Below are positions 6,800 through 39,106 of a stretch of 64,000 nt of DNA, piece after piece. The DNA comes from a virus, in the IMG/VR virus record IMGVR_UViG_2706795428_000001, positions 46,838 to 110,837 of that record; one strand, written 5' to 3'. The notes under the pieces are model-generated. The model was not told where the DNA came from. It saw only the letters and a list, made by a program, of their open reading frames with translations, and did no database searches. The first letter of the stretch is position 1; each line of letters opens with the position of its first letter. The translations under genes and the position numbers were made by a program.

Positions 6800-7267
6800 T
6801 TATGAACTCCAGCTGTATTCGTTTTCACCGTCTTTACTGATTCCTACATCTGGAGAAAGAAATGGAATTTTCTTGAAATTTGAAAAGACGTGTGAGAATT
6901 TTTCACCGAATGGAGTAAATCTAAACTGTTCTCCACCAGCAACCCATACATCTTCAAAAAGAACTACCCAAAGAGAATCATAAAAATTTTGCCACCAATT
7001 ATCATCTGGTTGTTCAGAAGGATCTTTACTCCATTCATAGTTATCGAAATAATCCGATTTGAAAACGATATATGCAGTCAACCCAGATTCGTTTTCAATG
7101 TAGACTCTTGTAACATTTTGGCTACAGAATCCCACGTTGAATTCATGATCAAATGTTAGAATATCATCAATTTCTGGATGATGCCAATGATGATGAATAT
7201 TATCGAACCAATAATCAATCAGTAATGGTTCGATATCGATGTTAATAAAACCTTCTGGAAATTTCAA
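6800..7267 (-). CDS. hypothetical protein (Trp/Asp/His-rich)
   Basis: ORF with SD GGAG upstream of a TTG start. Confidence 0.5.
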   Translation of the reverse strand: MKFPEGFINIDIEPLLIDYWFDNIHHHWHHPEIDDILTFDHEFNVGFCSQNVTRVYIENESGLTAYIVFKSDYFDNYEWSKDPSEQPDDNWWQNFYDSLWVVLFEDVWVAGGEQFRFTPFGEKFSHVFSNFKKIPFLSPDVGISKDGENEYSWSS

Positions 7268-7286
7268 AATTATCTCCTAATAGAGG

Positions 7287-7329
7287 GTTTCTGGTCTGTT
7301 TGCGGAAAATATGGAAACAGACCAGAAAC
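7287..7329. repeat. perfect 15-bp inverted repeat downstream of the INO1 gene
   Basis: GTTTCTGGTCTGTTT-N13-AAACAGACCAGAAAC; no U-tract on either side. Confidence 0.85.
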
Positions 7330-7370
7330 GATGCGATTCAAATCACAAAGAATTAAAGTTGTTACTAAAC

Positions 7371-8552
7371 TCAGAGAATGAATGTAGAAACAAATTTACC
7401 ATCTTCGCGTCGAACATAATCGTGAGGAATTTCACGTCGGGCTAGAATTTCACATTCTGTTCGAGCATCCTTTGTGAACATATCAACCGGAGGAGTTTTT
7501 TTCGTTGCAGCGCTGGGACCAACAATAGGACCAACAATACCAATTTCTTGAGCAACTTTCAAGAAACGGATAGCATCAATGGCGACCCCCGCAGAATTGG
7601 GACTATCAATACATGAAAGATCGGCAGTAAATTCAAAAGGCGCTCTACCAAAGATCGTCCCTTTGATAAGCCAATGAGCTCGTTTATTATCCTTTAGTGC
7701 TGGGAAATATTTTGCTGGACCTGCAGCAATTGTATTTGGTTTGGTTTCTTTACCAACCAAATCATTCTGTTTACGAATTACATTTTCTTTTGAAATTTTC
7801 TTCGAAGCTAGCCTATCAGGATTTTGCATTTGCTTGAAATCCATGTTGCCTCCAACATTATCCTGATAATGGACATCAATATCTGCTCCTCTTGCTAGGA
7901 AACATTCTTGTAGAACAGCAGAAATAATACTTGCTCCAATTGTTGAACGGACATCATCTCCAATAATAGTAACATTATTATCGGCAAATTTCTTTGCCCA
8001 TACCTTATCGGAAGCAATGAAACATGGAATACAGTTTACAACGTTTACATTTGCATTTAGACAAACATTCATCCAAAATTCTGTAGCATCTTGAGAGCCG
8101 ACAGGAAGATAGTTCATTAAAATATCGACTTGATTGTCTCGTAGATATTGAGCAAAATATTCAACATTCGCATCAACATCTTGTTCTACTGGAACAAACA
8201 TTTCTGAATCATTTACATCTGTCCCCCAAACTGGTGTATCTACACCATCAAGACGAGGACCTTGTTGAACAATAGGAAATTGTTTTTCAAGCTTAGAAAT
8301 ATTGTAAAGATCAATTGTATTATTCGGGAGTGAATGTAGAGCGACATTTAGAGGTTTACCAACTTTTCGTTGATCAACATCAAAGGCTGCAACAAATTCA
8401 ACGTTTTCAGGAGTATATCCTCCGATATTATCCATCATCAAATTCATTGTATCAAAATCAAATGCTCCTGCTTTAAATCCTTCGATACCTTGAACAAGAG
8501 CCGATGCACAATTTCCACACCCCACTAGAGCTACGCGAATTTTCTTAACCAT
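7371..8552 (-). CDS. ino1: L-myo-inositol-1-phosphate synthase (bacterial/archaeal type)
   Basis: Rossmann motif VGCGNCAS, FVAAFDVD..KVG, NYLPVGSQ.A, IIGDDVRSTIGA, GGNMDF, SKKISK, DSPNSAG. Confidence 0.9.
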   Translation of the reverse strand: MVKKIRVALVGCGNCASALVQGIEGFKAGAFDFDTMNLMMDNIGGYTPENVEFVAAFDVDQRKVGKPLNVALHSLPNNTIDLYNISKLEKQFPIVQQGPRLDGVDTPVWGTDVNDSEMFVPVEQDVDANVEYFAQYLRDNQVDILMNYLPVGSQDATEFWMNVCLNANVNVVNCIPCFIASDKVWAKKFADNNVTIIGDDVRSTIGASIISAVLQECFLARGADIDVHYQDNVGGNMDFKQMQNPDRLASKKISKENVIRKQNDLVGKETKPNTIAAGPAKYFPALKDNKRAHWLIKGTIFGRAPFEFTADLSCIDSPNSAGVAIDAIRFLKVAQEIGIVGPIVGPSAATKKTPPVDMFTKDARTECEILARREIPHDYVRREDGKFVSTFIL

Positions 8553-8645
8553 TACCTTAAAGTTCCTTTGTTATTTCAGTTGTTTCGGGAAACATTTCCC
8601 AGGCAGATTGATCCGGAATTGGAAGTAGCTGCCGAAAGAAGAAAA

Positions 8646-8674
8646 GAGTTTACCTCAAAGATTGAAGAAAGTAA
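8646..8674 (-). promoter_or_regulatory. early-type sigma70-like promoter for ino1
   Basis: Minus strand TTTACT-N17-TAAACT, followed by an ~85-nt leader with GGCAG/CTGCC and GGGAA/TTCCC stems. Confidence 0.6.
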
Positions 8675-8680
8675 ACTCTC

Positions 8681-9592
8681 CTAGAACAATTTAGAAAGAT
8701 CAGAAATCGGATCTTCAATATCTGGATGTTCCTGAAAATATTCTTTCCAAGAAACACGATCAAATGGTCGAATCTTTGAAATCGAAGTGATAGATTTCAA
8801 TTTGACTTCAGTCATTCCAGTATGCTTGACAAGTTTCGGTTCAGAGCAATACTTTCGAACGAGCTCGTCTTTTGCATAGACTTCTTCAGCAACATTCATC
8901 ATGAAAGCATTTCGATCATCTCCACCACGATCACCAGAAGATTGCATTCCTCCTGGATTCATTCCAGTGGAAGTTTTGAATCCTCCCCAATGATAGATAA
9001 CAATTCCTCCAGCTTTGTCGATGTAACGGCAAGTTCTCACAATGTCGTCCAAATGAGCAGTATAGATCTTGACAAAGTCAGGATCGTTTCTTGCACCCCA
9101 TGATCCACCAGGGAGATTGTATGGTCTGAATTCTTTCCAAGGTTTTCCTTGAAGATAGAAATCATTTTTGTAATAAGAGAATGAAAATGCTGTATTCAAT
9201 CCGAGTTCGTCAAGAGTCTTGAATCCGTCTTGAATGTATGCTTCAAGATTTGTAGATTTTGCGATGAAATTTGTTTTTGATGGAGTAGGATTGAACTCAA
9301 AAAATTCTTCAAGATCATCATCTAAAAAGAAAATTTTCTGATTGATTGGAAAGAAATCAGAAATGAAATGAACGATTTCTTTCCCGCCTTTTACTCCAAC
9401 AACAATCTCTTTATATGGATTGTCCCCCAGTGATTCTCGATATTCTTTCTTTTCTTCTTCATTCGCAACAAAGATGTAAAGCTTTTCAGAAAGATCGATA
9501 TGTTGTTTCGAGAGCATTGTGTAAGTTTTATCTCGAAACTGCATAGCTCGTTGATAAGATCTTACGGCAATAACATAATCATCAATATTCAT
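8681..9592 (-). CDS. TET/JBP-associated glycosyltransferase (TAGT/GREB1-like, GT-A fold)
   Basis: IAVRSYQRA N-terminus, FFLDDDL (DxD), C-terminal GGMQS..R; ATGA-coupled to the upstream aGPT-PPlase. Confidence 0.75.
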   Translation of the reverse strand: MNIDDYVIAVRSYQRAMQFRDKTYTMLSKQHIDLSEKLYIFVANEEEKKEYRESLGDNPYKEIVVGVKGGKEIVHFISDFFPINQKIFFLDDDLEEFFEFNPTPSKTNFIAKSTNLEAYIQDGFKTLDELGLNTAFSFSYYKNDFYLQGKPWKEFRPYNLPGGSWGARNDPDFVKIYTAHLDDIVRTCRYIDKAGGIVIYHWGGFKTSTGMNPGGMQSSGDRGGDDRNAFMMNVAEEVYAKDELVRKYCSEPKLVKHTGMTEVKLKSITSISKIRPFDRVSWKEYFQEHPDIEDPISDLSKLF

Positions 9593-10818
9593 AATACTTT
9601 GAACCATTTGTCTGTTTCTTGAAGTTCTTTTTGGAAATCAGATGATGTCGGAACAACCAATCCATCATCTTCCCAAATCTCTTTCACTTTATAATCAAAA
9701 GGATTCTCAAGTAAAGTCTCGAAACCATTTGGCATGTCTGGAAAAAGTTCATGCATATTCATAAGTTCGCCAGTGACCCCAAAGACTGAATCATACCACG
9801 AAGGAAAAACTGCACCTTTGATCAATCCTGGTTGATTTCTCAAAGCGCTTCTAAACGGCTTCCAGTCAATTTCGGGCCAATGTTCACGATAGTAAAGATA
9901 TCTTGATGTAGCATCACTCGAAGCATGCCCAGGCATTTCTCCTGAAGACCCATCAGGGGCAAACATTCGTTTGTACTGACAATAGATCGATTCTTTTCTG
10001 AATGAATCAATTCTGAAACCGGAGAATTCTTCTGCGATTGAAGTATATTCTAAAAGAGCGTCTTTAGCCCATTCAACATCTTTCTGAACAACTTGATAAT
10101 CTCCATACTTTCCAATCATCTTTTCAGGTTGATTTGTAAGAGCACAAAGACCATTCCAAATTGATCCAAGAGATGAATCGTTATTTGGAGAATATCCATC
10201 CAACATAATATCTTCTGGATCGATTGGAAGTTCAAGCAAATCATGAAGACATTGCATTAGAAGCCATCCAGTCATTCGACCGAATTTATGAAGTGTCTGA
10301 ATTTCTCTATAAAGAAGCCAGAAATTTTCTCTTTGACTTGACCCCACAAGGATTGAATCGAATTTATCTTTGAAAGAACTTTTTCCAAGCCAATTCTTGA
10401 CACTCTGAACTTGGCTAACCCAATGACCTTTGTTGTATCGAGCATCTGTTCCGTAAGTTGTTCTTTTCCAATTATTCGCATGCCATTTTTCCAATTCATT
10501 CATATTGATTGCATGAAAGTCTGGAAAGGTTTCAGTATATGCAAAAGCTTGAGGAGTTCTGTAAGTCATTCCAAAACAGAATGCAAACCATGCCTTTTGT
10601 TCAAAGTCATAATCTTTACAGAGATACTTGTAGTAATGAATATGATCCAGGTCATGCGTCAGGACTCTCCAATTGAAATATCGATTGAAAAGTTCTTGAC
10701 GTTTGCCTGGAGATTTCCATTCTTGAGTTGATTCTTCAATTCCAAAGAATCGTTTGTCCGCCTCTTGACTTGCTTTGTATTGCAGAAGCTTTTCAGAAAG
10801 TTTTGATTGTTTGGCCAT
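9589..10818 (-). CDS. aGPT-PPlase clade-2-like (amino acid:DNA transferase family) hypermodification enzyme
   Basis: AWFAFCFGMTYR, FGRMTGWLLMQCL (HhH-like) and ESIYCQYKRMF motifs. Confidence 0.75.
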   Translation of the reverse strand: MAKQSKLSEKLLQYKASQEADKRFFGIEESTQEWKSPGKRQELFNRYFNWRVLTHDLDHIHYYKYLCKDYDFEQKAWFAFCFGMTYRTPQAFAYTETFPDFHAINMNELEKWHANNWKRTTYGTDARYNKGHWVSQVQSVKNWLGKSSFKDKFDSILVGSSQRENFWLLYREIQTLHKFGRMTGWLLMQCLHDLLELPIDPEDIMLDGYSPNNDSSLGSIWNGLCALTNQPEKMIGKYGDYQVVQKDVEWAKDALLEYTSIAEEFSGFRIDSFRKESIYCQYKRMFAPDGSSGEMPGHASSDATSRYLYYREHWPEIDWKPFRSALRNQPGLIKGAVFPSWYDSVFGVTGELMNMHELFPDMPNGFETLLENPFDYKVKEIWEDDGLVVPTSSDFQKELQETDKWFKVL

Positions 10819-12516: not shown

Positions 12517-13844
12517 CAGAACAACGTAGCTCCTGTTTGAGGGTATGCTTCTGGATGATATTGAAGAACGACATCTTTTCCAAGTTTTGATTCTAGGTAA
12601 TCATACCATGCTTGTTCAGTAAACATTCCTGGCGTGACGCCATTGAACAAATTTCGCCCTTCCGAAAGAATTGGATCTTTCTTTCGTTCTTCTACATACT
12701 GAAATTTTACTTGATTGTATTCGTAAGAACCGGTTCCAATCAAATCTTCACGGAAATACGCAACAACACTACAACGATTTCCAATGATTGGAGTATTTCC
12801 GTGAATGATATTATGATTTGCAATCAGAAGAAGATCACCAGGACGAATATTAACGCATGCTCGATATTCTGGAAATACTAGATATCCGCCTTCAAAATCT
12901 GATTCACCATCAGTCAGTACTGAAAGATTGGAAAATCCTGCTTCCAGATCACCATCATCCAAATGGTATCCAGTGCGGAAATTTTTGTTCACAGTAATTG
13001 TGCTGAATACTGTTCCGGGAACAACGAATTCAGGAGCAACTTTCTTACATGCTTCATTTTGATTATTCCATCGTTTTGGAAGGAACTCTTTGAAAGCATT
13101 AGAAAGTTTCTGAAGATACGGAAAAGCTTGTTCAAACTCTTCAGGGTTATTTCGATTGAATGCTGCAAGACGAGCATAAGGGTATCGTGGATAAGGTGGT
13201 TGCGAACCGGCAACTCCAGAGTTCACAGGAGAAGCATAAGTCGAGATTGAAATATATTTTTTCTCTACAAATTCTGCTTCTTTCTTGCGTTCTTCTACAG
13301 AAAGTTTCCGTACTCTTTCCAACCATTCAGAGAATTTGAAATTATCATTTCGAGTTGCATGATACAGCCACATGCATCCTCTTGAACTGTTTTTGTCGCC
13401 ATCTTTGTATTTCTCAAAGATTTCTTCGATTGGATCAAATCCTGGAAGAGGTTGAGCACCTTTTTTGAATAGATTGATAATATCCCATTCTTTTGCAGTA
13501 ACCCAATCTCTATTGCCGACTTTTTCGACTTTTGGTCCTGCAGCCAAGCCACGATTATTTGAAGGGACATCGGCTGCGCGATTTAATCCTCGATATGCGC
13601 CAAGTTGTTCTTCTTTTGTGAAGTAATTTTTCCTGAAAACCAAACCAATTCTTGCTTCATCAATCGCTTGGGGACATGACGCACAATCTTGATTACATTC
13701 AAGCATATCTGAAACAAAGCAATCAGGCTTCGTATAGAAATTGGTATCAGAATCAATAATCACATCATAATGCGAATCTTCCGCAAACTGCCCCAGAAGA
13801 TGCTGACAATCAATCTTTTCTTTAGCAACAATAACATTAACCAT
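12516..13844 (-). CDS. TET/JBP-family 2OG-Fe(II) dioxygenase
   Basis: TITVNKNFRTGYHLD (HxD), GGYLVFPEY, IHGNTPI (distal His), RCSVVAYFRE (2OG-binding Arg). Confidence 0.85.
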   Translation of the reverse strand: MVNVIVAKEKIDCQHLLGQFAEDSHYDVIIDSDTNFYTKPDCFVSDMLECNQDCASCPQAIDEARIGLVFRKNYFTKEEQLGAYRGLNRAADVPSNNRGLAAGPKVEKVGNRDWVTAKEWDIINLFKKGAQPLPGFDPIEEIFEKYKDGDKNSSRGCMWLYHATRNDNFKFSEWLERVRKLSVEERKKEAEFVEKKYISISTYASPVNSGVAGSQPPYPRYPYARLAAFNRNNPEEFEQAFPYLQKLSNAFKEFLPKRWNNQNEACKKVAPEFVVPGTVFSTITVNKNFRTGYHLDDGDLEAGFSNLSVLTDGESDFEGGYLVFPEYRACVNIRPGDLLLIANHNIIHGNTPIIGNRCSVVAYFREDLIGTGSYEYNQVKFQYVEERKKDPILSEGRNLFNGVTPGMFTEQAWYDYLESKLGKDVVLQYHPEAYPQTGATLF

Positions 13845-14067
13845 TCATTATTTCCTTTTGCTTACTGATTAAATCCTAACAGTAAGTAGCAATTTCATTT
13901 TTCGGTGATTACAATCCAGAGAAACAAAGGCCAAAGAAGCCCCATGAAAAGAATTGGGCCGAATCGAGGATAATTCAAACCTTGTTGACGAAAATTCACT
14001 GAAAGATGAATCAACATCAGAGAAAGAATATACCAACCTACAAAGTATACTGTCAGGGTCGCACCAA

Positions 14068-14298
14068 TCACGATTTAATCATCCATTCATTGATGCGATC
14101 TTGGAGTTCATAGAGTTTAATTTCGAAGAACTTCAGAGTAAAATATACTACTCCAAAAGGAGTTTGGAGTAAAGTGAAAAATCCAATCAATACTGTGAAA
14201 ATTGTGAAAGAACATGCAGCAAAGAAAGTCTTTATTGCAAGATTCGTTTCCTTTTCAGAATATGTTTCAATCGACATTATAATCTCTTGTAAATTCAA
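14068..14298 (-). CDS. small membrane protein
   Basis: Hydrophobic central segment. Confidence 0.4.
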   Translation of the reverse strand: MNLQEIIMSIETYSEKETNLAIKTFFAACSFTIFTVLIGFFTLLQTPFGVVYFTLKFFEIKLYELQDRINEWMIKS

Positions 14299-14608
14299 TG
14301 TTGACGCTAGTATTTTGGTTTAGATGCAAAATTTCTCGTAATCTTTTTTCAAGAAACTCATATTCATTTCGTTCAGAGCAATATGAATAAAGAGCAAAAG
14401 CCCATGGATCTTTTTCGAACATTTTCTCAAGACTTTCACGGGTATGTTTCTCGTTTTTCTTAAACCAGTAATCAGTTTTGTTTCTACCAATATTCAGTTT
14501 AATGTTTTCTTCTTGCCTTTTCTTTCGCCATTTTTCAATTTGGTCTAGTCTTTTAGAAATAAGATCGGCGGCGAAAGAGCACGGAAGATTATACCAAACT
14601 CTTGTCAT
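14267..14608 (-). CDS. hypothetical protein
   Basis: ATGA-coupled ORF. Confidence 0.5.
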   Translation of the reverse strand: MTRVWYNLPCSFAADLISKRLDQIEKWRKKRQEENIKLNIGRNKTDYWFKKNEKHTRESLEKMFEKDPWAFALYSYCSERNEYEFLEKRLREILHLNQNTSVNIEFTRDYNVD

Positions 14609-15075
14609 GAAATTGGATCCTGGGTCACCAAAACCATTTCAATATCAGGCTTGAAGTAATTTGGCCCTTTCAGAACTTTGCCATCTTCACGATATACTGG
14701 TTTACCATCTTCACCAAGTTTGCTCATGTTCGAAGAGTGAACTTCTGAAAACACTGAATCAAGATTGATACCATATTCTACAGCAGTACCATGGTTGAAA
14801 TATTCAATATCTGCTAGAGCATCAGCGATTTCAACAATATCTGGAGCACGAACACGATCTAGGATTGATGCGACTTTCCATGCAGCCTGAATTAAATGAA
14901 TACCGGCAGGATTGTAACCCTGAGCATCTAAAAGTTCACAGAACTCTTCGATAATGAAACCATTGCGAAGATTTTCTCGTTGTACTGAAAGATTGTTTGG
15001 ATTAGGAATAGTTCCGATTGGTTGATTGTAAGTCTGATGAAACTGAAGAACTTTTTCAAAATTTGTCTTTGCCAT
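14605..15075 (-). CDS. MazG-like (all-alpha) NTP pyrophosphohydrolase
   Basis: IEEFCEL...EIADALADIEY...VHSSNMSK...GKVLKGPNY; likely start MAKTN at 15075. Confidence 0.85.
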   Translation of the reverse strand: MAKTNFEKVLQFHQTYNQPIGTIPNPNNLSVQRENLRNGFIIEEFCELLDAQGYNPAGIHLIQAAWKVASILDRVRAPDIVEIADALADIEYFNHGTAVEYGINLDSVFSEVHSSNMSKLGEDGKPVYREDGKVLKGPNYFKPDIEMVLVTQDPIS

Positions 15076-15076
15076 T

Positions 15077-15496
15077 TTAATTCTTTCCCACAACATATTT
15101 GTGAATAATTTGGAATTCTTTTTTCTCTTTCGAGGGGACAACCTTGATTGAAGAAATTGGAGCAAGGTCTTTGAATACTTCTGTATTCTTGACAGTGACA
15201 AGACCCCATTCATTTAGAAGCCATGCAATTGTATTTCGACGTTTACGATCTTCTTCACTGAAAGAAGTCGGTTTGCGGTCAAGCATGAAACATTCTTTAA
15301 AATGGAGTAGCCAATAACGACCACGCTTGAAAAGAATAACACATGAAGGATAAAGAGTCTTTGGGGTTGTTTTTGAAGAACTAATTCCAATTCGTTCAAG
15401 CGTTTCCTTGACGATTAGGAAATCTTCGGGTTTAGAGAGTTCAATTTCGATAAATGATTCTAATAGTTCTTCAACTGATTTATTTTGATTTGTCAT
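15077..15496 (-). CDS. regA: translational repressor RegA
   Basis: DFLIVKETLERIGI...LYPSCVILFKRGRYWLLHFKE; T4 synteny after gp62. Confidence 0.92.
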   Translation of the reverse strand: MTNQNKSVEELLESFIEIELSKPEDFLIVKETLERIGISSSKTTPKTLYPSCVILFKRGRYWLLHFKECFMLDRKPTSFSEEDRKRRNTIAWLLNEWGLVTVKNTEVFKDLAPISSIKVVPSKEKKEFQIIHKYVVGKN

Positions 15497-15507
15497 GGTA
15501 TACTTTC

Positions 15508-15936
15508 TTAAACTCCACCTTGATCAAGGTTTACTTCATTACGCAACTGTTGCATTTGTTCTTCTGTAAGAACATTCAAAAGAGCTGCTGCTTTCTCATT
15601 TGAATATTTGAAAACTTTCTTGATAATTTCAATATCAGGATTTTCCATTCCCTTCCACCATTTACTCCATCGTTTCCTTGGGCGAATTGAAAGTCTCAAG
15701 AAATCAAATTGAGCATTCTTTGGAAGGTTTGGATATTGATTTACTTCATTAGCATAGAGCACCGTATCAGAGAAATAACTCAAACCTCTATTGATTATGA
15801 ATGGTGCATATGCTTTCTCGACTTCTTCTTTCGACGGATAAGTCTTGAAAAGATTTTCTTTCTCTACACTATTAATTGCTGAAATGAAAGAGAAAGGATC
15901 AAGTTTCTTTTGTTTGGTTGGAGCATCTTCACTCAA
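15508..15936 (-). CDS. 62: clamp loader small subunit (T4 gp62)
   Basis: PFIINRGLSYFSDTVLYANEVN...QFDFL...RKRWSKW; TTG start inferred. Confidence 0.88.
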   Translation of the reverse strand: MSEDAPTKQKKLDPFSFISAINSVEKENLFKTYPSKEEVEKAYAPFIINRGLSYFSDTVLYANEVNQYPNLPKNAQFDFLRLSIRPRKRWSKWWKGMENPDIEIIKKVFKYSNEKAAALLNVLTEEQMQQLRNEVNLDQGGV

Positions 15937-29704: not shown

Positions 29705-29948
29705 AAAACTTAGAGTTTATGCAGTAACGGAAACCCTTCCAAAACAAAAGGGTTATCTTGATAACGAAAAGATTCGTAAACAGTATCTCCAAAAGAAAGG
29801 TTTATTTGGTTGGATTACCATTGATGAAGAAACTGTTCCGGATTGGGCAGTGATTAGTCTTGGATGTTTCGGTGATACTGGTGGATGGGTTTCGAAATTT
29901 GCAAAGTATGGTTCTTTTGGTAGAGACGGACTGATTACTTCAAAGTAA
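29697..29948 (+). CDS. early hypothetical protein
   Basis: Coupled ORF. Confidence 0.55.
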   Translation: MNEKLRVYAVTETLPKQKGYLDNEKIRKQYLQKKGLFGWITIDEETVPDWAVISLGCFGDTGGWVSKFAKYGSFGRDGLITSK

Positions 29949-31401
29949 TTCTATACATCTTGTAATTGAATTTCTCTTCGATGTAGATTTTGATTCTTTC
30001 AATGAGATGGTTCAGAGTATGATTCTTTGAACCTTTCCATGAAAGATCGTCTGCAATGTCAAAGAAAGTCGATGAAGTCTTTCCGGAAGCCAATCGAAGA
30101 GCTCGACCAATCGATTGAAGATTGATGATCTTTCCTTTGTTTGGATGAGCCGAAATAAGATTGTGGAGTTTCTTTGTATTCGATCCCGTCGACATTGTCC
30201 CTTTCGACCCGACAATGATTGCATCATCTTCTTCTTCGATGATCTTTCGAATGTACTCACGATCCTCTTTCTCAGTTCCTCCATTAACGAAGTAAACGTT
30301 TCGCCCTTCTTTCACAGAAGATTTGAGTTGCTCATAGAGATATTTCCCATGATCATTGATTCTGAAAAGGATTAGAGAGTTTCCTTGAAGAGACAATCCA
30401 AGATTGACAATGAATTTGTTTCTTGATGGAGAATTGATAAGAAACTTGATTTCATCTTGATAGGTTTTTTTGTGAAGAGCTTTCCTTGATTCTTCAGGAT
30501 GTTCGAGGACAAGGCATTTGATTTTTAAATCAGCGACAAATCCCTGATCCATTAACTCGGCAGTCGTGATGACTTTGTGAATCTTTCCGAACATTCCTGT
30601 CAGGGCCATTTCGGAAGTTTTGGAATCTGTCAAAGTGCCAGTCAAACCAAAACGATTTGGAGCTTCAAGGCATTTGTCCATGGTTGAAGTGATTGATTTC
30701 GCTTCTCCAAGATGAACTTCATCAACCATGACAAGCTGATATTGATCGAAGTAATACTTGTCTTGTTTCACTAGAGAATGATACGTCGAAATTGTGATAT
30801 CGACTTCGGCAGATTTCGCAACTCCTGAAGTGATTTGATGAATTCTTTCCTTGTATCCATAGTCTCTGAAATCTCCAGACATCTGAGCGACCAGAGCAAT
30901 GGTTGGAACAATGACAAGACATTTTGAACCCATTACATCGATGTAATAGCGACAAATCAAATATTGTAGAAGACTTTTGCCCGAACTTGTTGGGGCAAGT
31001 TGAATAGATCTTCCTTCGCGAATACATGTCACAAAAGCTTTGATTTGATAATCTCTTGGAGTATATTTCTCAGGAATGTTTAGAGTCTTGATGAAATCTT
31101 CTGCTTCTTTTACAGAAAATTCTGTATATCCAAAAGAACCATCTTGAGAGATTGAATAATCTCTATTCTTTGCAAATTTCAGAACTTCATGAATAAGTCC
31201 TGCTCGAATTGTATGATCCTTGAGCCGAAATTCGTAAAGTTTACCATTCCATCCACGATATTTGTATGCAGGACTCCAAGCATAGTTGGGAGCAAAATAT
31301 GAGAAATGTTCATGGAGTTCTTGAGCAATTCCTTGATCACAATCAATGATTGCATGAACATTATTGAGTTTGCGAATATGAATATCAGATGTTTGCGGCA
31401 T
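29935..31401 (-). CDS. uvsW: UvsW SF2 DNA helicase
   Basis: PRDYQ, APTSSGKS, VDEVH, GLTGT, QSIGRALR. Confidence 0.95.
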   Translation of the reverse strand: MPQTSDIHIRKLNNVHAIIDCDQGIAQELHEHFSYFAPNYAWSPAYKYRGWNGKLYEFRLKDHTIRAGLIHEVLKFAKNRDYSISQDGSFGYTEFSVKEAEDFIKTLNIPEKYTPRDYQIKAFVTCIREGRSIQLAPTSSGKSLLQYLICRYYIDVMGSKCLVIVPTIALVAQMSGDFRDYGYKERIHQITSGVAKSAEVDITISTYHSLVKQDKYYFDQYQLVMVDEVHLGEAKSITSTMDKCLEAPNRFGLTGTLTDSKTSEMALTGMFGKIHKVITTAELMDQGFVADLKIKCLVLEHPEESRKALHKKTYQDEIKFLINSPSRNKFIVNLGLSLQGNSLILFRINDHGKYLYEQLKSSVKEGRNVYFVNGGTEKEDREYIRKIIEEEDDAIIVGSKGTMSTGSNTKKLHNLISAHPNKGKIINLQSIGRALRLASGKTSSTFFDIADDLSWKGSKNHTLNHLIERIKIYIEEKFNYKMYRITLK

Positions 31402-32365: not shown

Positions 32366-32394
32366 AAAAAGGCTCCCAATTTGGGAGCCTTTTT
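32366..32394. terminator. bidirectional intrinsic terminator
   Basis: AAAAAGGCTCCC-AATTT-GGGAGCCTTTTT between convergent genes. Confidence 0.85.
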
Positions 32395-32840
32395 CATGAG
32401 CCGTTTGTAAATCTCAAGAAGTCGATTGCATTTCGTATCGTATTACTTCGATACTTGATTGTATCGATGATTGACTCACAGAAAAGAACTTTCTCTTTCT
32501 GATAAGCAATCTCGAGCATTTTTTTATTCAAGTATTTGTCTGATTCAAGATAACGATTGACGTCTCCTTTTAGGACTTTCTTTCCAAAGTCTCGCCACTC
32601 TTGAGTCCATCCCATTTTTTCAATGGTTTCATCATCTAAGGATGCTGTGTAAAATTCATATCGAAGAGCAGACAATTCCTTAAGATCGATCTCCATCTTT
32701 CTGAGAAGTAATCGTTCTCTGCTGAAAATTGCGAAATACTTTGAGTGAAGTTTTGGAATTTTCGTCGATTCTGTCGCGAGATTATGTTCGTCGATTTCAG
32801 AATCTTCATTCCATTTTTGTTGAATTTCTTCTAATTTCAT
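32394..32840 (-). CDS. uvsY: recombination mediator UvsY
   Basis: MKLEEIQQKW.EDSEID...LATES.KIPKLHSKY...IRNAIDF.RF..G. Confidence 0.9.
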   Translation of the reverse strand: MKLEEIQQKWNEDSEIDEHNLATESTKIPKLHSKYFAIFSRERLLLRKMEIDLKELSALRYEFYTASLDDETIEKMGWTQEWRDFGKKVLKGDVNRYLESDKYLNKKMLEIAYQKEKVLFCESIIDTIKYRSNTIRNAIDFLRFTNGS

Positions 32841-33100: not shown

Positions 33101-33579
33101 TTTCGTTCGAAACGAAACTTAGTGAACTTCATTGTCAGGAGACAATCGAGATACTGAACTCCAGCAGCATCAGTATTCATCTGAAATCCTGAAAGACCAA
33201 CAGGAACAAGATCTTCAAAGAAGAATGTGCATGTTTTCGAGAATTGAGCATTCAAGAAAGCAAGCGAACCATTCCCTTTCAAGGTCTTGTTCTTTTCTTG
33301 GAAAGCTTTCCTTTGATCATATGAATCCGGGAATGTCGCTGCTTCAATCCACCGAAATGCTTCTTCGTAGTTTCTGAGTTCTTTGTCGATTTTGAACCGA
33401 ACTGAGATTCCATCGAAATCGACATGATCAGACGTCTGAGAGAGTGTTACAAATGGTGTTGGAGTGTTAGTCCAGCCAATTGACATTCCAGGAACATTGA
33501 CCTGTTGGACAAAGTCTGAGACTGTTGGAAGAAGATCACATTGGAATTGAAAACCAAGTGGCGAAAGAAAATCTGTCAT
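33091..33579 (-). CDS. 3: tail completion / sheath stabilizer (T4 gp3-like)
   Basis: FLSPLGFQF...VQQVNVPG...ISVRFKIDKELRNYEE...WI. Confidence 0.8.
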   Translation of the reverse strand: MTDFLSPLGFQFQCDLLPTVSDFVQQVNVPGMSIGWTNTPTPFVTLSQTSDHVDFDGISVRFKIDKELRNYEEAFRWIEAATFPDSYDQRKAFQEKNKTLKGNGSLAFLNAQFSKTCTFFFEDLVPVGLSGFQMNTDAAGVQYLDCLLTMKFTKFRFERNQE

Positions 33580-33836
33580 TCAGTAGCTTCTTTGTTGATG
33601 AATGCTTCGATTGACTTATATCGTTTGCCATCAAGAGTATGAACAGAAGCATCACGATTCATTCCGAAAGCTTTCCAGTATGCTTGAGAGGATTCTGAAT
33701 GATTTGTCAGGACTTCGAAAGATGCTACCTCATAAGGTGCTACTTTTCTTCCATTTGAAAGCTTGTAGGATCCTCTTGTAAAATAGTTTCCTTCATGTTC
33801 TTGCCAGTAGGTTTCTGAAATTGCTTGTTCGTCCAT
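33576..33836 (-). CDS. hypothetical protein
   Basis: Coupled ORF. Confidence 0.5.
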   Translation of the reverse strand: MDEQAISETYWQEHEGNYFTRGSYKLSNGRKVAPYEVASFEVLTNHSESSQAYWKAFGMNRDASVHTLDGKRYKSIEAFINKEATE

Positions 33837-33915
33837 TTGGAACGATCCTTTTGATTTGTTTGAGAAGAATTCTTTATACCTTAGAATTTATCGAAAAGAA
33901 AGTTCAAAGATTCGC

Positions 33916-33944
33916 TTTACTTTCATTATTGTTCAGGGTATATT
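33916..33944 (+). promoter_or_regulatory. early promoter
   Basis: TTTACT-N17-TATATT plus GAAACGAAGGAGAAAT leader. Confidence 0.7.
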
Positions 33945-33977
33945 TCATTATAGCGAGTGAAACGAAGGAGAAATCAA

Positions 33978-34250
33978 ATGGCTCTCAAGATTACGAAAAT
34001 TTATGATGTTCGTAATACTAACAGGAATCTTGATTATTCGGTCGATGAATTCGTTTCGGAAATGGTTCAAGAGGCCGCTTATGAATATTCGGACGATGCT
34101 CTTGCACGAGCACATGATCGTATCGAATTTCTTTCGAAGACTTTGGGTAAATTGGTTGATATTCTCCCGATCGATGATGATAAGAAAATCGCTTTCCTGG
34201 AGGAAATGATACCTTATCGTGTGACTGGTTTTAAGATCGAAAAGGAATAA
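33978..34250 (+). CDS. early hypothetical protein
   Basis: Start MALKITK after SD. Confidence 0.6.
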   Translation: MALKITKIYDVRNTNRNLDYSVDEFVSEMVQEAAYEYSDDALARAHDRIEFLSKTLGKLVDILPIDDDKKIAFLEEMIPYRVTGFKIEKE

Positions 34251-34296
34251 AGAACTTTACTTCCTATCGAAATAAGGTAAAGTGAAATTCTATTGT

Positions 34297-34455
34297 GATC
34301 CAATGGCGGAATTGGTAGACGCGACAGACGGGAACAAGTGAAGGTTGATATCTTCATAGATCAGATTAATTTCTGAGAGTGCAAATCTCAAAGTTCCAAA
34401 AATCAAAATCTGTTGTCCTAGTGACGTGTCGGTTCGAGTCCGACTTGGATTACCA
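34297..34455 (+). tRNA. tRNA-Leu(CAA), type II, with a 73-nt insertion in the anticodon loop
   Basis: Acceptor GATCCAA/TTGGATT, A73, CCA; D-arm GCGGAATTGGTAGACGC; anticodon stem ACAGA/TCTGT; variable stem GTC/GAC; T-arm GTCGG-TTCGAGT-CCGAC. Confidence 0.85.
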
Positions 34456-34481
34456 CTACTTTAAGTTTAGGAGAAATCATT

Positions 34482-34694
34482 ATGAAATTTGCAATTGGTC
34501 AACGAGTTCGTATCACGAAACTTTATCCTGACTATGCTTTTCGTGGAGTAACTGGCACTGTCACAGGAGTCGATGAAACTTCGACGTATCCTTACATGAT
34601 GTCTCTCGACGAAACTGTTCGGAATTTCCAACTTGGTTTTGATTACCTCCAACATGTCAAGGAAGAAGAGCTGGAAGCAATCGATGAAAAGTAA
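34482..34694 (+). CDS. small KOW/SH3-like hypothetical protein
   Basis: FAIGQRVRI...G.TGTV; SD AGGAG. Confidence 0.55.
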
Positions 34695-34872
34695 ACAAAC
34701 ACTCTATTGTTCGTTTTGTGGAAAGAGTCATCGTGAGGTTGAAACTTTGATTGCTTCTGTTAATGCTTTTATTTGTTCTGAATGTGTTGATCTTTGTATG
34801 GAAATTGTTCAAGAACGTCGAAAGAATCTTGATCCATATCGTTGGTATGATCCAATCTCTGGAGAATTTTAA
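34684..34872 (+). CDS. stand-alone ClpX C4-type zinc-binding domain protein
   Basis: [18 protein letters not shown]...[15 protein letters not shown]. Confidence 0.9.
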
Positions 34873-35079
34873 TGAATCGTATGAATGAAACCAACACGCC
34901 GTATGTCGATTATGAGAAATTTCAAGAAATTAATCGCCTTCTTGCACAAGCTGGTAAACTTGCAGATCAACTCACTCAAAATGGTTATACATTAAAGATG
35001 AGTCTTTGGGGGCGAACCTTCTCAAACAATTGAAGGTCGTTTGCAGGGTAATGTTTCTAAAGTATTTCTTTACAAATAA
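34872..35079 (+). CDS. small hypothetical protein with probable +1 G in a homopolymer
   Basis: Frame continues to TAA at 35077-35079 if GGGGG (35008-35012) is read as GGGG. Confidence 0.4.
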
Positions 35080-35120
35080 AGTTTACTTTCGAAACTTCTT
35101 AATTTAAAAATGTTTCAAAC

Positions 35121-35197
35121 GGTCGCATAGCTCAACTGGAGAGAGCACAAGCCTTCTAAGCTTGGGGTTGTAGGTTCGAGTCCTACTGCGATCGCCA
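35121..35197 (+). tRNA. tRNA-Arg(TCT)
   Basis: GGTCGCA/TGCGATC acceptor, anticodon arm CAAGC-CTTCTAA-GCTTG, GTTCGAGT T-loop, CCA. Confidence 0.95.
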
Positions 35198-35397
35198 AAT
35201 TTCATAGAAAGAATTTGATTGTCGAATAAAGTTTACATTGTTTCTAAAACGACAGAGAAAACCAAAGAATTTCATTCTTCTCATGATTGCATTGATTTTG
35301 CGATGCAAGAATGTTCTAAAATGAACTGGATAACTCCTGGTCCTCAAACAACTCGACCAGTTTATACGATTGATGTAATCGAAAAGGAATAGTCAAA

Positions 35398-36027
35398 ATG
35401 CCTACAGGATATACTGCTTCAGTTCAAGATGGAACGGTAACTGATTTCAGAGAATTTGCTTTCAAATGTCTTCGAGGTCTTGGTGTAACAATCACGATGC
35501 GAGACGAACCTTGGAATGCTGAAATTCCAGAACAGTTCGAGCCATCTGATCATCATTTGAAAGAACTCGCTAAAGCAAAGAAAAATCTTACAGAATTTCT
35601 TTCGAAAACTATTCAAGAACTCCAAGAACAACAAAAGACTGAATATGAAAATTCAGTCAAAGCTTATCAAAAAACTTTAGAGACGCAAGAACTTTACCGA
35701 AATCGTTATCAAACAATGCTTGCGAAAGTCGAAGCATGGCAAGTTCCTGAAACTTCTGAAATTCAAGGCGCAAAGAAATTTATGCGAGAACAACTACAAT
35801 CTTCGATCGATTTCGATTGCGGATACTCAGATTACGGGAACCCTCAAGAAGAACTATCTTTTTCAGATTGGATTGAGTCGAAACGAAAATCTCTTGAGTG
35901 GCGAGTTCAATATCATGAGAAAGAATATGCCAATGAAATTGAACGAACCAATGCTCGTAATGCTTTTCTGAAAGAGTTTCGAGAACTCATTGATGCTTCT
36001 GAAGAATATTGGAAGAGTCAAGAATAA
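35398..36027 (+). CDS. conserved phage hypothetical protein (MPTGYT family), coiled coil
   Basis: MPTGYTASVQDG...FREFAFKC.RG.G..I.MRDEP. Confidence 0.7.
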   Translation: MPTGYTASVQDGTVTDFREFAFKCLRGLGVTITMRDEPWNAEIPEQFEPSDHHLKELAKAKKNLTEFLSKTIQELQEQQKTEYENSVKAYQKTLETQELYRNRYQTMLAKVEAWQVPETSEIQGAKKFMREQLQSSIDFDCGYSDYGNPQEELSFSDWIESKRKSLEWRVQYHEKEYANEIERTNARNAFLKEFRELIDASEEYWKSQE

Positions 36028-37426: not shown

Positions 37427-39106
37427 TTGTCGAGTAAACTGCAGAAACCTTCACAAGACCAATTGTGTCACAGCAATTGGTGGAGTTCGACGTTCTTCAA
37501 AGAGAATGGTGAAGTAAATGCTCGAATGTTCCAGAATAGAACTCTGGAACATTTGGGCGTTTTGTCGTTTCTGAGTTCTTTTGAATCAGATATCAATGAT
37601 AATCGCGGGAAAATTTTTGTTCTTGCTGGTAAAGCGTCTGTGTCAGTTTGCAAACATCCTGATTGCTCGAATCGTTTCATCGGCGACGCTCAATTTTGTA
37701 GTATTTCGTGTCGAAACAAAGATCCAGAAATTAGAAAGACAATTACAATTGCTGCTGAAAATCGTTCTGAAGAACGTAAAACGGAGATTGATCTAAAGAG
37801 AAAAGAGTCATACAAGAAAAATTATGGCGTAGAGCATCCTCATCGTAGACCAGGCAGAGCAAAAGAAGCTCGCGTAAAAGCCGAAATCACTATGGTTGAA
37901 CGGTATGGCGAAAACCATTATAAGGATCGATTTGAAACATTAAAAGATGCTAATGGTGGCAATCATCCTATGAATACTGGTCGTCGTAGATCAGAAGCTG
38001 AAAACGAAATTGCCGAATTCTTAATTGCGAATGGTATCAAAGAATCAGATACTTTGGCAGATTGGGTATCGATTGAACCAATGTCGATTGATATAATGGT
38101 TCAATCGAAGAAAATTGGTATTGAACATAATGGTTCTTATTGGCATGCATCAAATGTGGGCAATAAACTGTTTCCAAGTTATCATAGATACAAATATGAA
38201 AGAGCAAAGGGAGTAGGAATTCGCCTAATTCAATTTTGGTGTTTCGAATGGATCAACCGCCGAGAACAATGCCAGAATTTTCTTTTATCTGCTCTCGGTC
38301 TTAATAAGACTGTCGTTTTTGCCAGAAAAACAGAAGTTCGAGAAGTTTCAAAAGATGATGCAGTTGAATTTGTAAACAAATATCATATTCAGGAAATCCA
38401 TAAAAATCGAATCAATTATGCAGTTGGTTTGTATTATGATAATGAATTGATTTCGATTATGACATTCGGCTCACATCAAAGAAAGCAGACAAAATCAATT
38501 CCTGTTCTTAATCGTTATTGCACGAAAGCTGGTATTAATGTTACAGGTGGTGCAAGTAAACTTCTAACATTTGCTGTAAAAGAAAAGAATTATCAAAATC
38601 TTGTGACATGGTCTGATAATAGATTTTCAGATGGAGGTCTTTATGAGAAACTCGGTTTCGTGAAAGATGCAGATATCAAACAAGATCGTTTCTATGTTTC
38701 AAGTAAAACCGGAGAAGTTAGATCAAAACAAAGTGCAACCAAAAAGAAACTTGGAATTGAAAATCTAGAAATTACTGAAACGGAATACATGCATCAACAA
38801 GGATATTGGATTCTTTATGATGCCGGTAAAGTTCGATGGATTTTCAATAAGACGGAAGAAATTTCAGTCGATCCAGAGTATATGGACATTCAACCAAAGA
38901 AATCCATGAAAGATCATTGGACTGAAGGGAAATATGAAACTCGTCGAGAAAATCAAAAGAAAACATATAAAGTCACAAGCCCTGAAGGTGATGTATACAT
39001 CATAAAAGGTCTTAGAGAATTCTGTAGGACACATAATCTTACAGAACAATGTATGTCTCAAAAAGGTAAAAATAAAGGATGGCTTTGTGAGAAAATTTGT
39101 GAATAA
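37427..39106 (+). CDS. Hef-like free-standing homing endonuclease (Vsr/DUF559-like nuclease, GNAT-like region, NUMOD-like tail)
   Basis: CKHPDC/FCSISC zinc motif; SEAENEI...IDI...IGIEHNGSYWH; FARKTEVREV, GGASKLL, SDNRFSDG.LYEKLGF. Confidence 0.75.
   Translation: MSSKLQKPSQDQLCHSNWWSSTFFKENGEVNARMFQNRTLEHLGVLSFLSSFESDINDNRGKIFVLAGKASVSVCKHPDCSNRFIGDAQFCSISCRNKDPEIRKTITIAAENRSEERKTEIDLKRKESYKKNYGVEHPHRRPGRAKEARVKAEITMVERYGENHYKDRFETLKDANGGNHPMNTGRRRSEAENEIAEFLIANGIKESDTLADWVSIEPMSIDIMVQSKKIGIEHNGSYWHASNVGNKLFPSYHRYKYERAKGVGIRLIQFWCFEWINRREQCQNFLLSALGLNKTVVFARKTEVREVSKDDAVEFVNKYHIQEIHKNRINYAVGLYYDNELISIMTFGSHQRKQTKSIPVLNRYCTKAGINVTGGASKLLTFAVKEKNYQNLVTWSDNRFSDGGLYEKLGFVKDADIKQDRFYVSSKTGEVRSKQSATKKKLGIENLEITETEYMHQQGYWILYDAGKVRWIFNKTEEISVDPEYMDIQPKKSMKDHWTEGKYETRRENQKKTYKVTSPEGDVYIIKGLREFCRTHNLTEQCMSQKGKNKGWLCEKICE

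Follow-up and report, generated by a model that had tools for sequence, protein, structure and literature searches.

To our knowledge, the prevailing view is that every tRNA intron of bacteria and phages is self-splicing, belonging to group I or, rarely, group II, and short tRNA introns spliced by proteins are a hallmark of archaea and eukaryotes. Group I introns of cyanobacterial and plastid tRNA-Leu(UAA) sit at U34/A35. Phage RNA ligases have, as far as we know, so far been seen only as repair enzymes, and we know of no report in which the PrrC/Pnkp/Rnl1 pathway was shown to serve the routine splicing of phage tRNAs. The closest description concerns the Lak megaphages, whose tRNAs contain short 'enigmatic' introns that are highly conserved, one of them tRNA-like, and that were given neither an Rfam class nor a mechanism (Devoto et al., 2019; PMC6784885). 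The same paper defined no family architecture or end rule, and our search of the literature found no description of such introns beyond it and no later explanation of the Lak introns.

The gene described here lies in a 64,000-bp stretch of DNA, the window, which comprises bases 46838–110837 of the 155,997-bp viral record IMGVR_UViG_2706795428_000001 (completeness 97%), and it carries an insert that has relatives in other phage contigs. Like group I introns, these are intervening sequences in the anticodon loop, mostly of tRNA-Leu, in phages, some of whose genomes place homing-endonuclease genes nearby; unlike group I introns, they are 62–75 nt rather than about 200 nt or more in length, the 5' exon offers no guide-sequence pairing, and the insertion site varies from 32/33 to 35/36. 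They resemble the protein-spliced introns of archaea and eukaryotes (EndA/Sen, RtcB or Trl1) in being short, in sitting in the anticodon loop, and in probably needing an endonuclease and an RNA ligase, but they have no bulge-helix-bulge and the cuts appear to track the intron's own helix. With the Lak introns, compared by description only, they share the form of short inserts in phage tRNA genes, although Lak phages are Prevotella megaphages and the carriers here are a T4-like phage and freshwater phages. As in the T4 PrrC/Pnkp/Rnl1 system, there is an Rnl1 with a tRNA-specific C-terminal domain next to a kinase-like gene and there would be an anticodon-loop nick to seal, but the T4 pathway mends damaged host tRNA-Lys. 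Finally, the interrupted gene recalls T4 species 1 RNA (rnaC) and the 'top-half' RNAs, which are likewise oversized tRNA-related RNAs in T4-type tRNA regions; unlike the top-half RNAs, it retains the anticodon stem and the CCA end. We suggest that it is a working tRNA-Leu(CAA) gene with a candidate intron, excised by enzymes that read tRNA-like ends and sealed by Rnl1 or Rnl2, and we give this reading a probability of roughly one half.

The interrupted tRNA-Leu(CAA) gene and its insert

A sequence-only reading of the window had proposed a tRNA-Leu(CAA) interrupted in its anticodon loop, and ARAGORN with introns allowed finds just this gene at 34297–34455 on the plus strand, its exons totaling 86 nt and its insert 73 nt. 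Neither default ARAGORN nor the Rfam tRNA model detects it as it stands; once the insert is deleted in silico, default ARAGORN recognizes an ordinary tRNA-Leu(CAA) that has A73 and CCA in the encoded sequence. The 5' exon (34297–34329, plus strand) consists of the acceptor 5' strand, the D arm, the anticodon-stem 5' strand (34324–34328) and C32 (34329), and the 3' exon (34403–34455, plus strand) of U33 (34403), the anticodon CAA (34404–34406), A37, A38, the anticodon-stem 3' strand, the long variable arm, the T arm, the acceptor 3' strand, A73 and CCA. The insert (34330–34402) thus sits between C32 and U33, and since both of these bases are required, its boundaries are unique. The exons are a consensus phage tRNA-Leu. 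They have every feature of class II tRNA-Leu that we looked for (7-bp acceptor, Leu-type D arm, long variable arm, T arm, A73 and a Leu anticodon in a 7-nt loop), and without the insert the anticodon arm is identical in every base to those of phage tRNA-Leu(CAA) genes that have no interruption. When viral contigs were scanned with the 5' half of this arm, 120 stretches came up; 93 of them are ordinary uninterrupted tRNA-Leu genes, and the D arm and anticodon stem of the window tRNA match these 93.

In the neighborhood of the tRNA site are the T4-type core genes UvsW (window 29935–31401) and UvsY (window 32394–32840). According to ARAGORN, the interrupted gene is the sole tRNA-Leu of the phage, in which UUG makes up 15% of Leu codons, and the five other tRNAs (Arg, Asn, Gly, Met and Pro) are uninterrupted; one of them, a tRNA-Arg(UCU) found by both default ARAGORN and the Rfam tRNA model, lies nearby in this gene block, likewise on the plus strand (35121–35197). 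The promoter of its own that the sequence-only reading had assigned to the tRNA-Leu, at 34256–34283, did not survive, as it fell below the threshold of our promoter scan, and the number of promoter-like sites around the gene is not above that in shuffled sequence. Better sigma-70-like sites lie at 33860–33887 and 33916–33944, upstream of the ORF that precedes the tRNA-Leu, so that the gene is probably co-transcribed with its neighbors.

Close relatives of the phage were found neither among cultured phages nor, as near copies, in viral or metagenome contigs, and the exact junction and exon patterns of its tRNA-Leu are absent from the same viral and metagenome contigs. The nearest relatives of UvsW and UvsY (49–56% identity) have no tRNA-Leu at the syntenic place, one further UvsY relative at 73% identity lies on a contig too short to give context, and the small ORFs that flank the tRNA-Leu yielded no relatives. 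Farther downstream, a 62-aa ORF (window 34684–34872, plus strand) matches PHROG families, one of which is annotated 'protease', and a 559-aa ORF (window 37427–39106, plus strand) shows weak matches to the REase_MTES_1575 restriction-endonuclease-like domain and to a Mom-family domain.

Folded alone with RNAfold, the insert forms the GGAAC/GUUCC closing stem and three hairpins that had been drawn from the letters, at −20.3 kcal/mol (z = −3.1), and none of 200 shuffles folds as well. The description of this four-way junction (34330–34402, plus strand) as a cloverleaf of tRNA length holds for its shape but not for its identity: ARAGORN and Rfam both fail to recognize a tRNA in it. On the same strand, its first base, G (N1), and the 5' strand of the closing stem occupy 34330–34335, GGAAC pairing with 34393–34397, and the 3' strand GUUCC followed by A (N') occupies 34393–34398, as given by both folding and covariation; N1 stands opposite A 34398 as a G·A mismatch. 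Between these strands follow, in order, a junction AA (34336–34337), hairpin 1 (34338–34357; 8 bp with the loop UGAU, the first pair being G·U), a junction AGA (34358–34360), hairpin 2 (34361–34376; U, then CAGA/UCUG with the loop UUAAUU, then A), hairpin 3 (34377–34389; 3 bp, GAG/CUC, with the 7-nt T-loop-like loop UGCAAAU) and a junction AAA (34390–34392), and the insert ends in a single-stranded 4-nt tail, AAAA (34399–34402). Compared with a mature tRNA, the inserts have 5–6 closing pairs instead of 7, a T-like stem of 3 pairs instead of 5, and a tail that is not CCA. The window insert is present in a single copy in the genome.

A family of related inserts in phage tRNA genes

A covariance model built from the window insert alone (R1) matched one insert, in a tRNA-Leu(UAA) of another contig, L098 (34.5 bits), which has a 21-nt block in common with the interrupted tRNA-Leu of a further contig, L021. 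A motif derived from these three inserts, anchored on the downstream T arm and scanned over viral contigs, gave seven matches, all of them true family members. With filters off, R1 scores the window insert at 120.4 bits, L257 at 48.1, L098 at 34.5, L259 at 29.8 and L021 at 23.7; in covariance-model scoring of all five members, the values are 64–98 bits. The scans of the collections required exact motif matches and so missed divergent members. Among the genome-contig matches listed, the only true one is a copy of the L021 insert (L319); the many false positives are ordinary tRNA-Ser(CGA) genes, cobalamin riboswitch-like sequences and others. A second model (R2) run on 50 further phage records and all other collected loci found no additional member, and each member record holds one copy of the insert.

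The family, which is small and apparently undescribed, comprises five distinct inserts of 62–75 nt, hosted by one tRNA-Leu(CAA), three tRNA-Leu(UAA) and one tRNA-Gln(UUG). Besides the 73-nt insert of the window (34330–34402, Leu-CAA, site 32/33), these are L257:854–928 (Gln-UUG, site 33/34, 75 nt), which is the nearest, though not a close, relative of the window insert; L098:8747–8808 (Leu-UAA, site 32/33, 62 nt), identical in L258, L260 and L261; L259:9120–9182 (Leu-UAA, site 35/36 or 34/35, 63 nt); and L021:7861–7931 (Leu-UAA, site 34/35 or 33/34, 71 nt), from a 455-kb phage and with an identical copy in L319. The latter is a 24,983-bp scaffold of a Gammaproteobacteria MAG, identical to the region of the interrupted tRNA-Leu in L021, and probably represents phage DNA that was assigned to the MAG, or else it points to the host. 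Contigs from four freshwater runs show no change in the L098-type insert, the listed differences lying outside the tRNA. In the reads of these four, out of 24 freshwater DNA runs listed for L260, no joint that skips the 62-nt insert was found; the only joint seen belongs to the tRNA-Leu of another organism and spans some 220 other letters, probably those of a group I intron.

A lack of conserved insert structure in relatives had been named as grounds for abandoning the sequence-only reading, and the opposite was found: the five inserts have one architecture, with covariation. As matched by a regular expression, all five follow a common grammar, namely N1, 5 bp, AA, G[H1]U, AGA, N, C[H2]G, A, 3 bp with UGCRAAU, RAA, 5 bp, N' and a 4-nt tail. 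The junctions AA and AGA are invariant, as are the first C-G pair of hairpin 2 and, where aligned, the first G·U pair of hairpin 1, and the third junction is RAA throughout; four members have G·A at N1·N' and the fifth has C-G. Two elements do not vary in length, the closing stem with its 5 bp and one terminal pair and the 3-bp T-loop hairpin, whose loop pattern is also constant; hairpin 1 varies from 4 to 8 bp and hairpin 2 from 3 to 6 bp, and the tails (AAAA, AAGA, CCUA, AGAA and AGCU) are constant in length and variable in sequence.

In an alignment fitted to the model, and leaning towards structure for that reason, 94.9% of cells are paired and both sides have changed in 20 of 26 pairs, including all five pairs of the closing stem, which covary across the family. 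None of 500 shuffled controls reached the observed covariation, and slid controls gave 24–46% pairing. Independently of the model, MAFFT with RNAalifold recovered hairpins 2 and 3 together with the closing stem, and of the 12 pairs involved 9 show compensatory changes.

The ends of the inserts obey a simple rule. In the three members with unambiguous boundaries (window, L257 and L098), the 5-bp stem is preceded by exactly 1 nt of insert and followed by exactly 5, and the ambiguous boundaries of L259 and L021 allow the same; each of the five is an anticodon-loop insert whose first base opens an acceptor-like helix and which ends in a 4-nt 3' tail, as expected of a tRNA-shaped intron. The site within the anticodon loop varies (32/33, 33/34, 34/35 or 35/36), and in every case the anticodon loop has its correct 7 nt once the insert is taken out. 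The five host tRNAs are all intact, with CCA encoded and an anticodon that fits the body (UAA or CAA in tRNA-Leu, UUG in tRNA-Gln). Because the insertion position shifts while the ends track the insert's own helix, the cut sites follow the insert and not the tRNA body, and we infer that the fold of the intron itself would position the cuts. With a helix that begins at its first base and a 3' overhang of 4 nt, the insert would have the end geometry of a mature tRNA. If the junction AA is assumed to face the last two A of RAA, and the single A before hairpin 3 to face the R, then the closing stem and the T-loop hairpin with A·A, A·A and A·R stacked in would, by inspection rather than computation, make about 12 layers, which is the length of the acceptor arm plus T arm of a tRNA.

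Possible routes of removal and rival explanations

Neither group I introns, bulge-helix-bulge introns nor the ribozymes of Rfam fit these inserts. As for group I introns, there is no Intron_gpI match at E ≤ 10 in Rfam over 33500–36000, 73 nt is too short, the inserts end in A, A, A, A and U rather than in the terminal G, and the last bases of the 5' exons are C, U, C, A (or U) and U, which does not give the U·G of a group I 5' splice site; nor does any other Rfam family match that region at E ≤ 10. A bulge-helix-bulge is not formed, the stretches that hold the 5' and 3' sites being 2 and 11 nt long in the folds, and a 4-bp helix between tail and 5' exon that would give a similar form fails because the tail does not pair. 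EndA (PF01974) and RtcB are both absent from the two near-complete carrier genomes, G000 (that of the window) and G001, and in a control PF01974 was found only in archaea. Covariance models of the hammerhead, hairpin, twister, twister-sister, pistol, hatchet and HDV-like ribozymes gave no match at E ≤ 10. The insert is not a canonical tRNA or minihelix, being called by neither ARAGORN nor Rfam and having a 3-bp T-like stem, UGCAAAU and the tail AAAA; it gives no meaningful alignment with T4 rnaC or rnaD, and no repeat or mobile-element copy of it occurs within the genome. Two further ideas were dropped on inspection by eye: a pairing between a hairpin loop and the anticodon is present in the window and some members and absent in L098, and an RNase E-type cut-site consensus fits two of the five.

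The sequence-only reading had left two interpretations side by side, a novel short intron and an unspliced decoy. Judged from the sequences, the intron is favored, because there are five homologous inserts with strong covariation, intact tRNAs, correct 7-nt loops, and ligases in the genome. That the insert is removed is likely, given that diverged inserts all sit in otherwise perfect tRNAs with a matching anticodon. In the route that we propose, RNase P, or another enzyme that reads tRNA-like ends, would cut before the first base of the insert, and a second nuclease would cut after the 4-nt tail. The exons would then be left with a 3'-OH and a 5'-P, and the nicked anticodon loop could be sealed by Rnl2 or by the phage Rnl1-type ligase, the T4 homologue of which mends breaks in anticodon loops. 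The tRNA-like end geometry and the stack of about 12 layers make an RNase P-type 5' cut the most likely route, although recognition by RNase P is conjecture in view of the non-CCA tail, the stem of 5–6 pairs, the T-like stem of 3 pairs and the silence of tRNA finders. For the 3' cut, we know of no bacterial enzyme for which sequence-independent cleavage at exactly 4 nt beyond such a helix is established; leads are E. coli RNase BN/Z, first found via T4 tRNA maturation, and T. maritima RNase Z, which cuts after CCA.

RNA ligases, which the sequence-only reading had suggested looking for, are present in the genome, outside the window. The RNA repair genes form two pairs, all on the minus strand. 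In the first pair (genome 9037–10771), an Rnl1 with a T4_Rnl1_C domain (9524–10771) adjoins a Pnk-like P-loop kinase with Walker A (about 9037–9594); no phosphatase domain was found beside it, making it kinase-only. In the second (13391–15511), an Rnl2-type ligase (13391–14470) stands next to a calcineurin-type metallophosphoesterase (14669–15511). The other complete carrier genome (G001, 100%) encodes Rnl1 and several Rnl2-type genes, and the remaining carriers are fragments. The occurrence of RNA ligases in both complete carriers adds little weight, since T4-like and jumbo phages often encode such enzymes.

A new small ribozyme, whose core would cut both ends of the insert or splice it, leaving a kinase, a phosphoesterase and Rnl1 to heal and seal, seems unlikely. 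The exons would in this case carry a 2',3'-cyclic phosphate and a 5'-OH, for which the genome has the healing kit in the kinase beside Rnl1 and the metallophosphoesterase beside Rnl2, and the core would consist of the junction purines, the G·U pair and the T-loop. Some 25 invariant unpaired or junction bases in a covarying scaffold are typical of ribozyme cores. The insert itself sets the cut sites, at the base of one helix, and its 5' site lies directly before the first structured base, the position at which HDV-like and hatchet ribozymes cut. On the other hand, no Rfam ribozyme family is matched at E ≤ 10, no known self-cleaving class has such a fold, and the helices are without the internal loops typical of hairpin or twister-sister ribozymes; two precise cuts, or full splicing, by an RNA of 62 nt would be unprecedented.

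Alternatively, the insert may be kept, and the 159-nt RNA may serve, for example, as a decoy for anticodon nucleases or as a non-decoding Leu donor that LeuRS can charge, which we consider improbable. Bacterial LeuRS does not read the anticodon, so an unspliced RNA could still be charged; but one of the hosts is a tRNA-Gln, whose synthetase does read it. A parallel is offered by the tRNA-Leu top-half RNAs, numerous in phages, in which unrelated sequence replaces the anticodon arm; the genes described here differ from them, as the top-half RNAs have no anticodon stem and are mostly without a CCA end. No splicing enzyme has been identified, which also agrees with an unspliced RNA, but such an RNA would have no reason to keep seven loop bases, a matching anticodon and an intact stem in five lineages while the insert moves.

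Equally, we think it improbable that the insert is selfish DNA, a cassette spread by homing endonucleases that inactivates a dispensable tRNA and leaves a pseudogene, its fold serving DNA mobility or nothing. Paralogous HNH endonuclease-like ORFs are interspersed with tRNA genes in two carriers (L098:7019–7438, 8270–8782 and 9780–10211; L021:4082–4528 and 7197–7823). Such ORFs lie directly upstream of the interrupted tRNA-Leu in both, one ending at or inside its 5' part, and a second nuclease-like family occurs near the inserts of L257, L259 and L098, all of which would suit spread by homing; no endonuclease gene was recognized beside the tRNA-Leu of the window, whose insert is single copy. 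Different tRNAs and different sites are what mobile elements would give, and phage tRNAs are often dispensable; the spread across two tRNA types and several loop positions also fits a mobile intron. The insertions are not all recent, however, as the inserts are widely diverged, and despite this divergence the five host tRNAs are otherwise perfect and covariation keeps an RNA-type fold, G·U pairs and T-loop included. An assembly artifact or chimera joining a tRNA gene to unrelated sequence, conceivable in a metagenome-assembled viral contig, is scarcely credible when homologous inserts of the same architecture occur in independent assemblies from other samples and the insertion is exact to the base.

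Returning to the candidate intron, it is possible, and we put this forward tentatively, that the family represents a third mode of tRNA splicing, in which RNase P and a 3' nuclease would excise the tRNA-mimicking insert from any position in the anticodon loop and Rnl would reseal the loop, and which would be the first protein- or RNP-dependent one in the bacterial world, or else a new class of small ribozyme. If true, this would mean that RNase P-type processing has been put to a previously unrecognized use, that phage RNA ligases have a constitutive role, or that a new small ribozyme exists, and the insert family would be a compact, portable RNA module. As standard tRNA finders miss the interrupted genes, phage tRNA repertoires and analyses of codon supply have been undercounted.

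Other inserts and tRNA-related RNAs in phages

Other phage tRNA-Leu genes carry inserts outside this family. A 59-nt insert at 32/33 of a tRNA-Leu(UAA) (L252:5787–5845) is a minihelix that resembles a tRNA lacking the anticodon arm: its acceptor stem has 7 bp, its D-like hairpin is small, its T arm is canonical and its tail is ACCA. It matches model R2 weakly (23.4 bits). A 49-nt insert consisting of a 9-bp stem and an ACCA tail lies between C32 and U33 of tRNA-Leu(UAA) in L119, L226, L237, L250, L251, L253, L254 and L256, near-identical in these eight contigs from several assemblies. Like the window insert, both types occupy the 32/33 site of tRNA-Leu, and they share the geometry of the five-member family, the helix starting at the first base and the 3' tail being 4 nt long; they differ from this family in having stems of 7–9 bp, a canonical T arm or none, and true ACCA ends, where the family has a 5-bp stem, a 3-bp T-like hairpin, invariant junctions of its own and non-CCA tails.

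Long inserts after U34 were seen in phage tRNA-Leu(UAA) genes with the same anticodon stem in L140, L148, L170, L171, L173 and L177, and their opening looks like that of the classical tRNA-Leu group I intron. Top-half RNAs were found in L008, L010, L011, L015, L019, L022, L033, L036 (two copies), L043, L066, L073, L074, L079, L081, L083, L093, L099 and others; they have a perfect tRNA-Leu acceptor, D arm and T arm, with 85–115 nt of unrelated sequence in place of the anticodon and variable arms, and mostly end in ACAA or ACTA and not in CCA.

In a 360-kb phage (L071), a tRNA-Leu(UAA) on the minus strand (~946–1073) has a 43-nt insert at 34/35 made up of a 7-bp stem-loop with short tails, and ARAGORN predicts several other interrupted tRNAs at the same locus. 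Lastly, a 55-nt insert after C32 of a tRNA-Leu(UAA) (L255:1491–1545, candidate boundaries) includes a hairpin resembling a T arm, and at its end the 5' strand of the anticodon stem is repeated.
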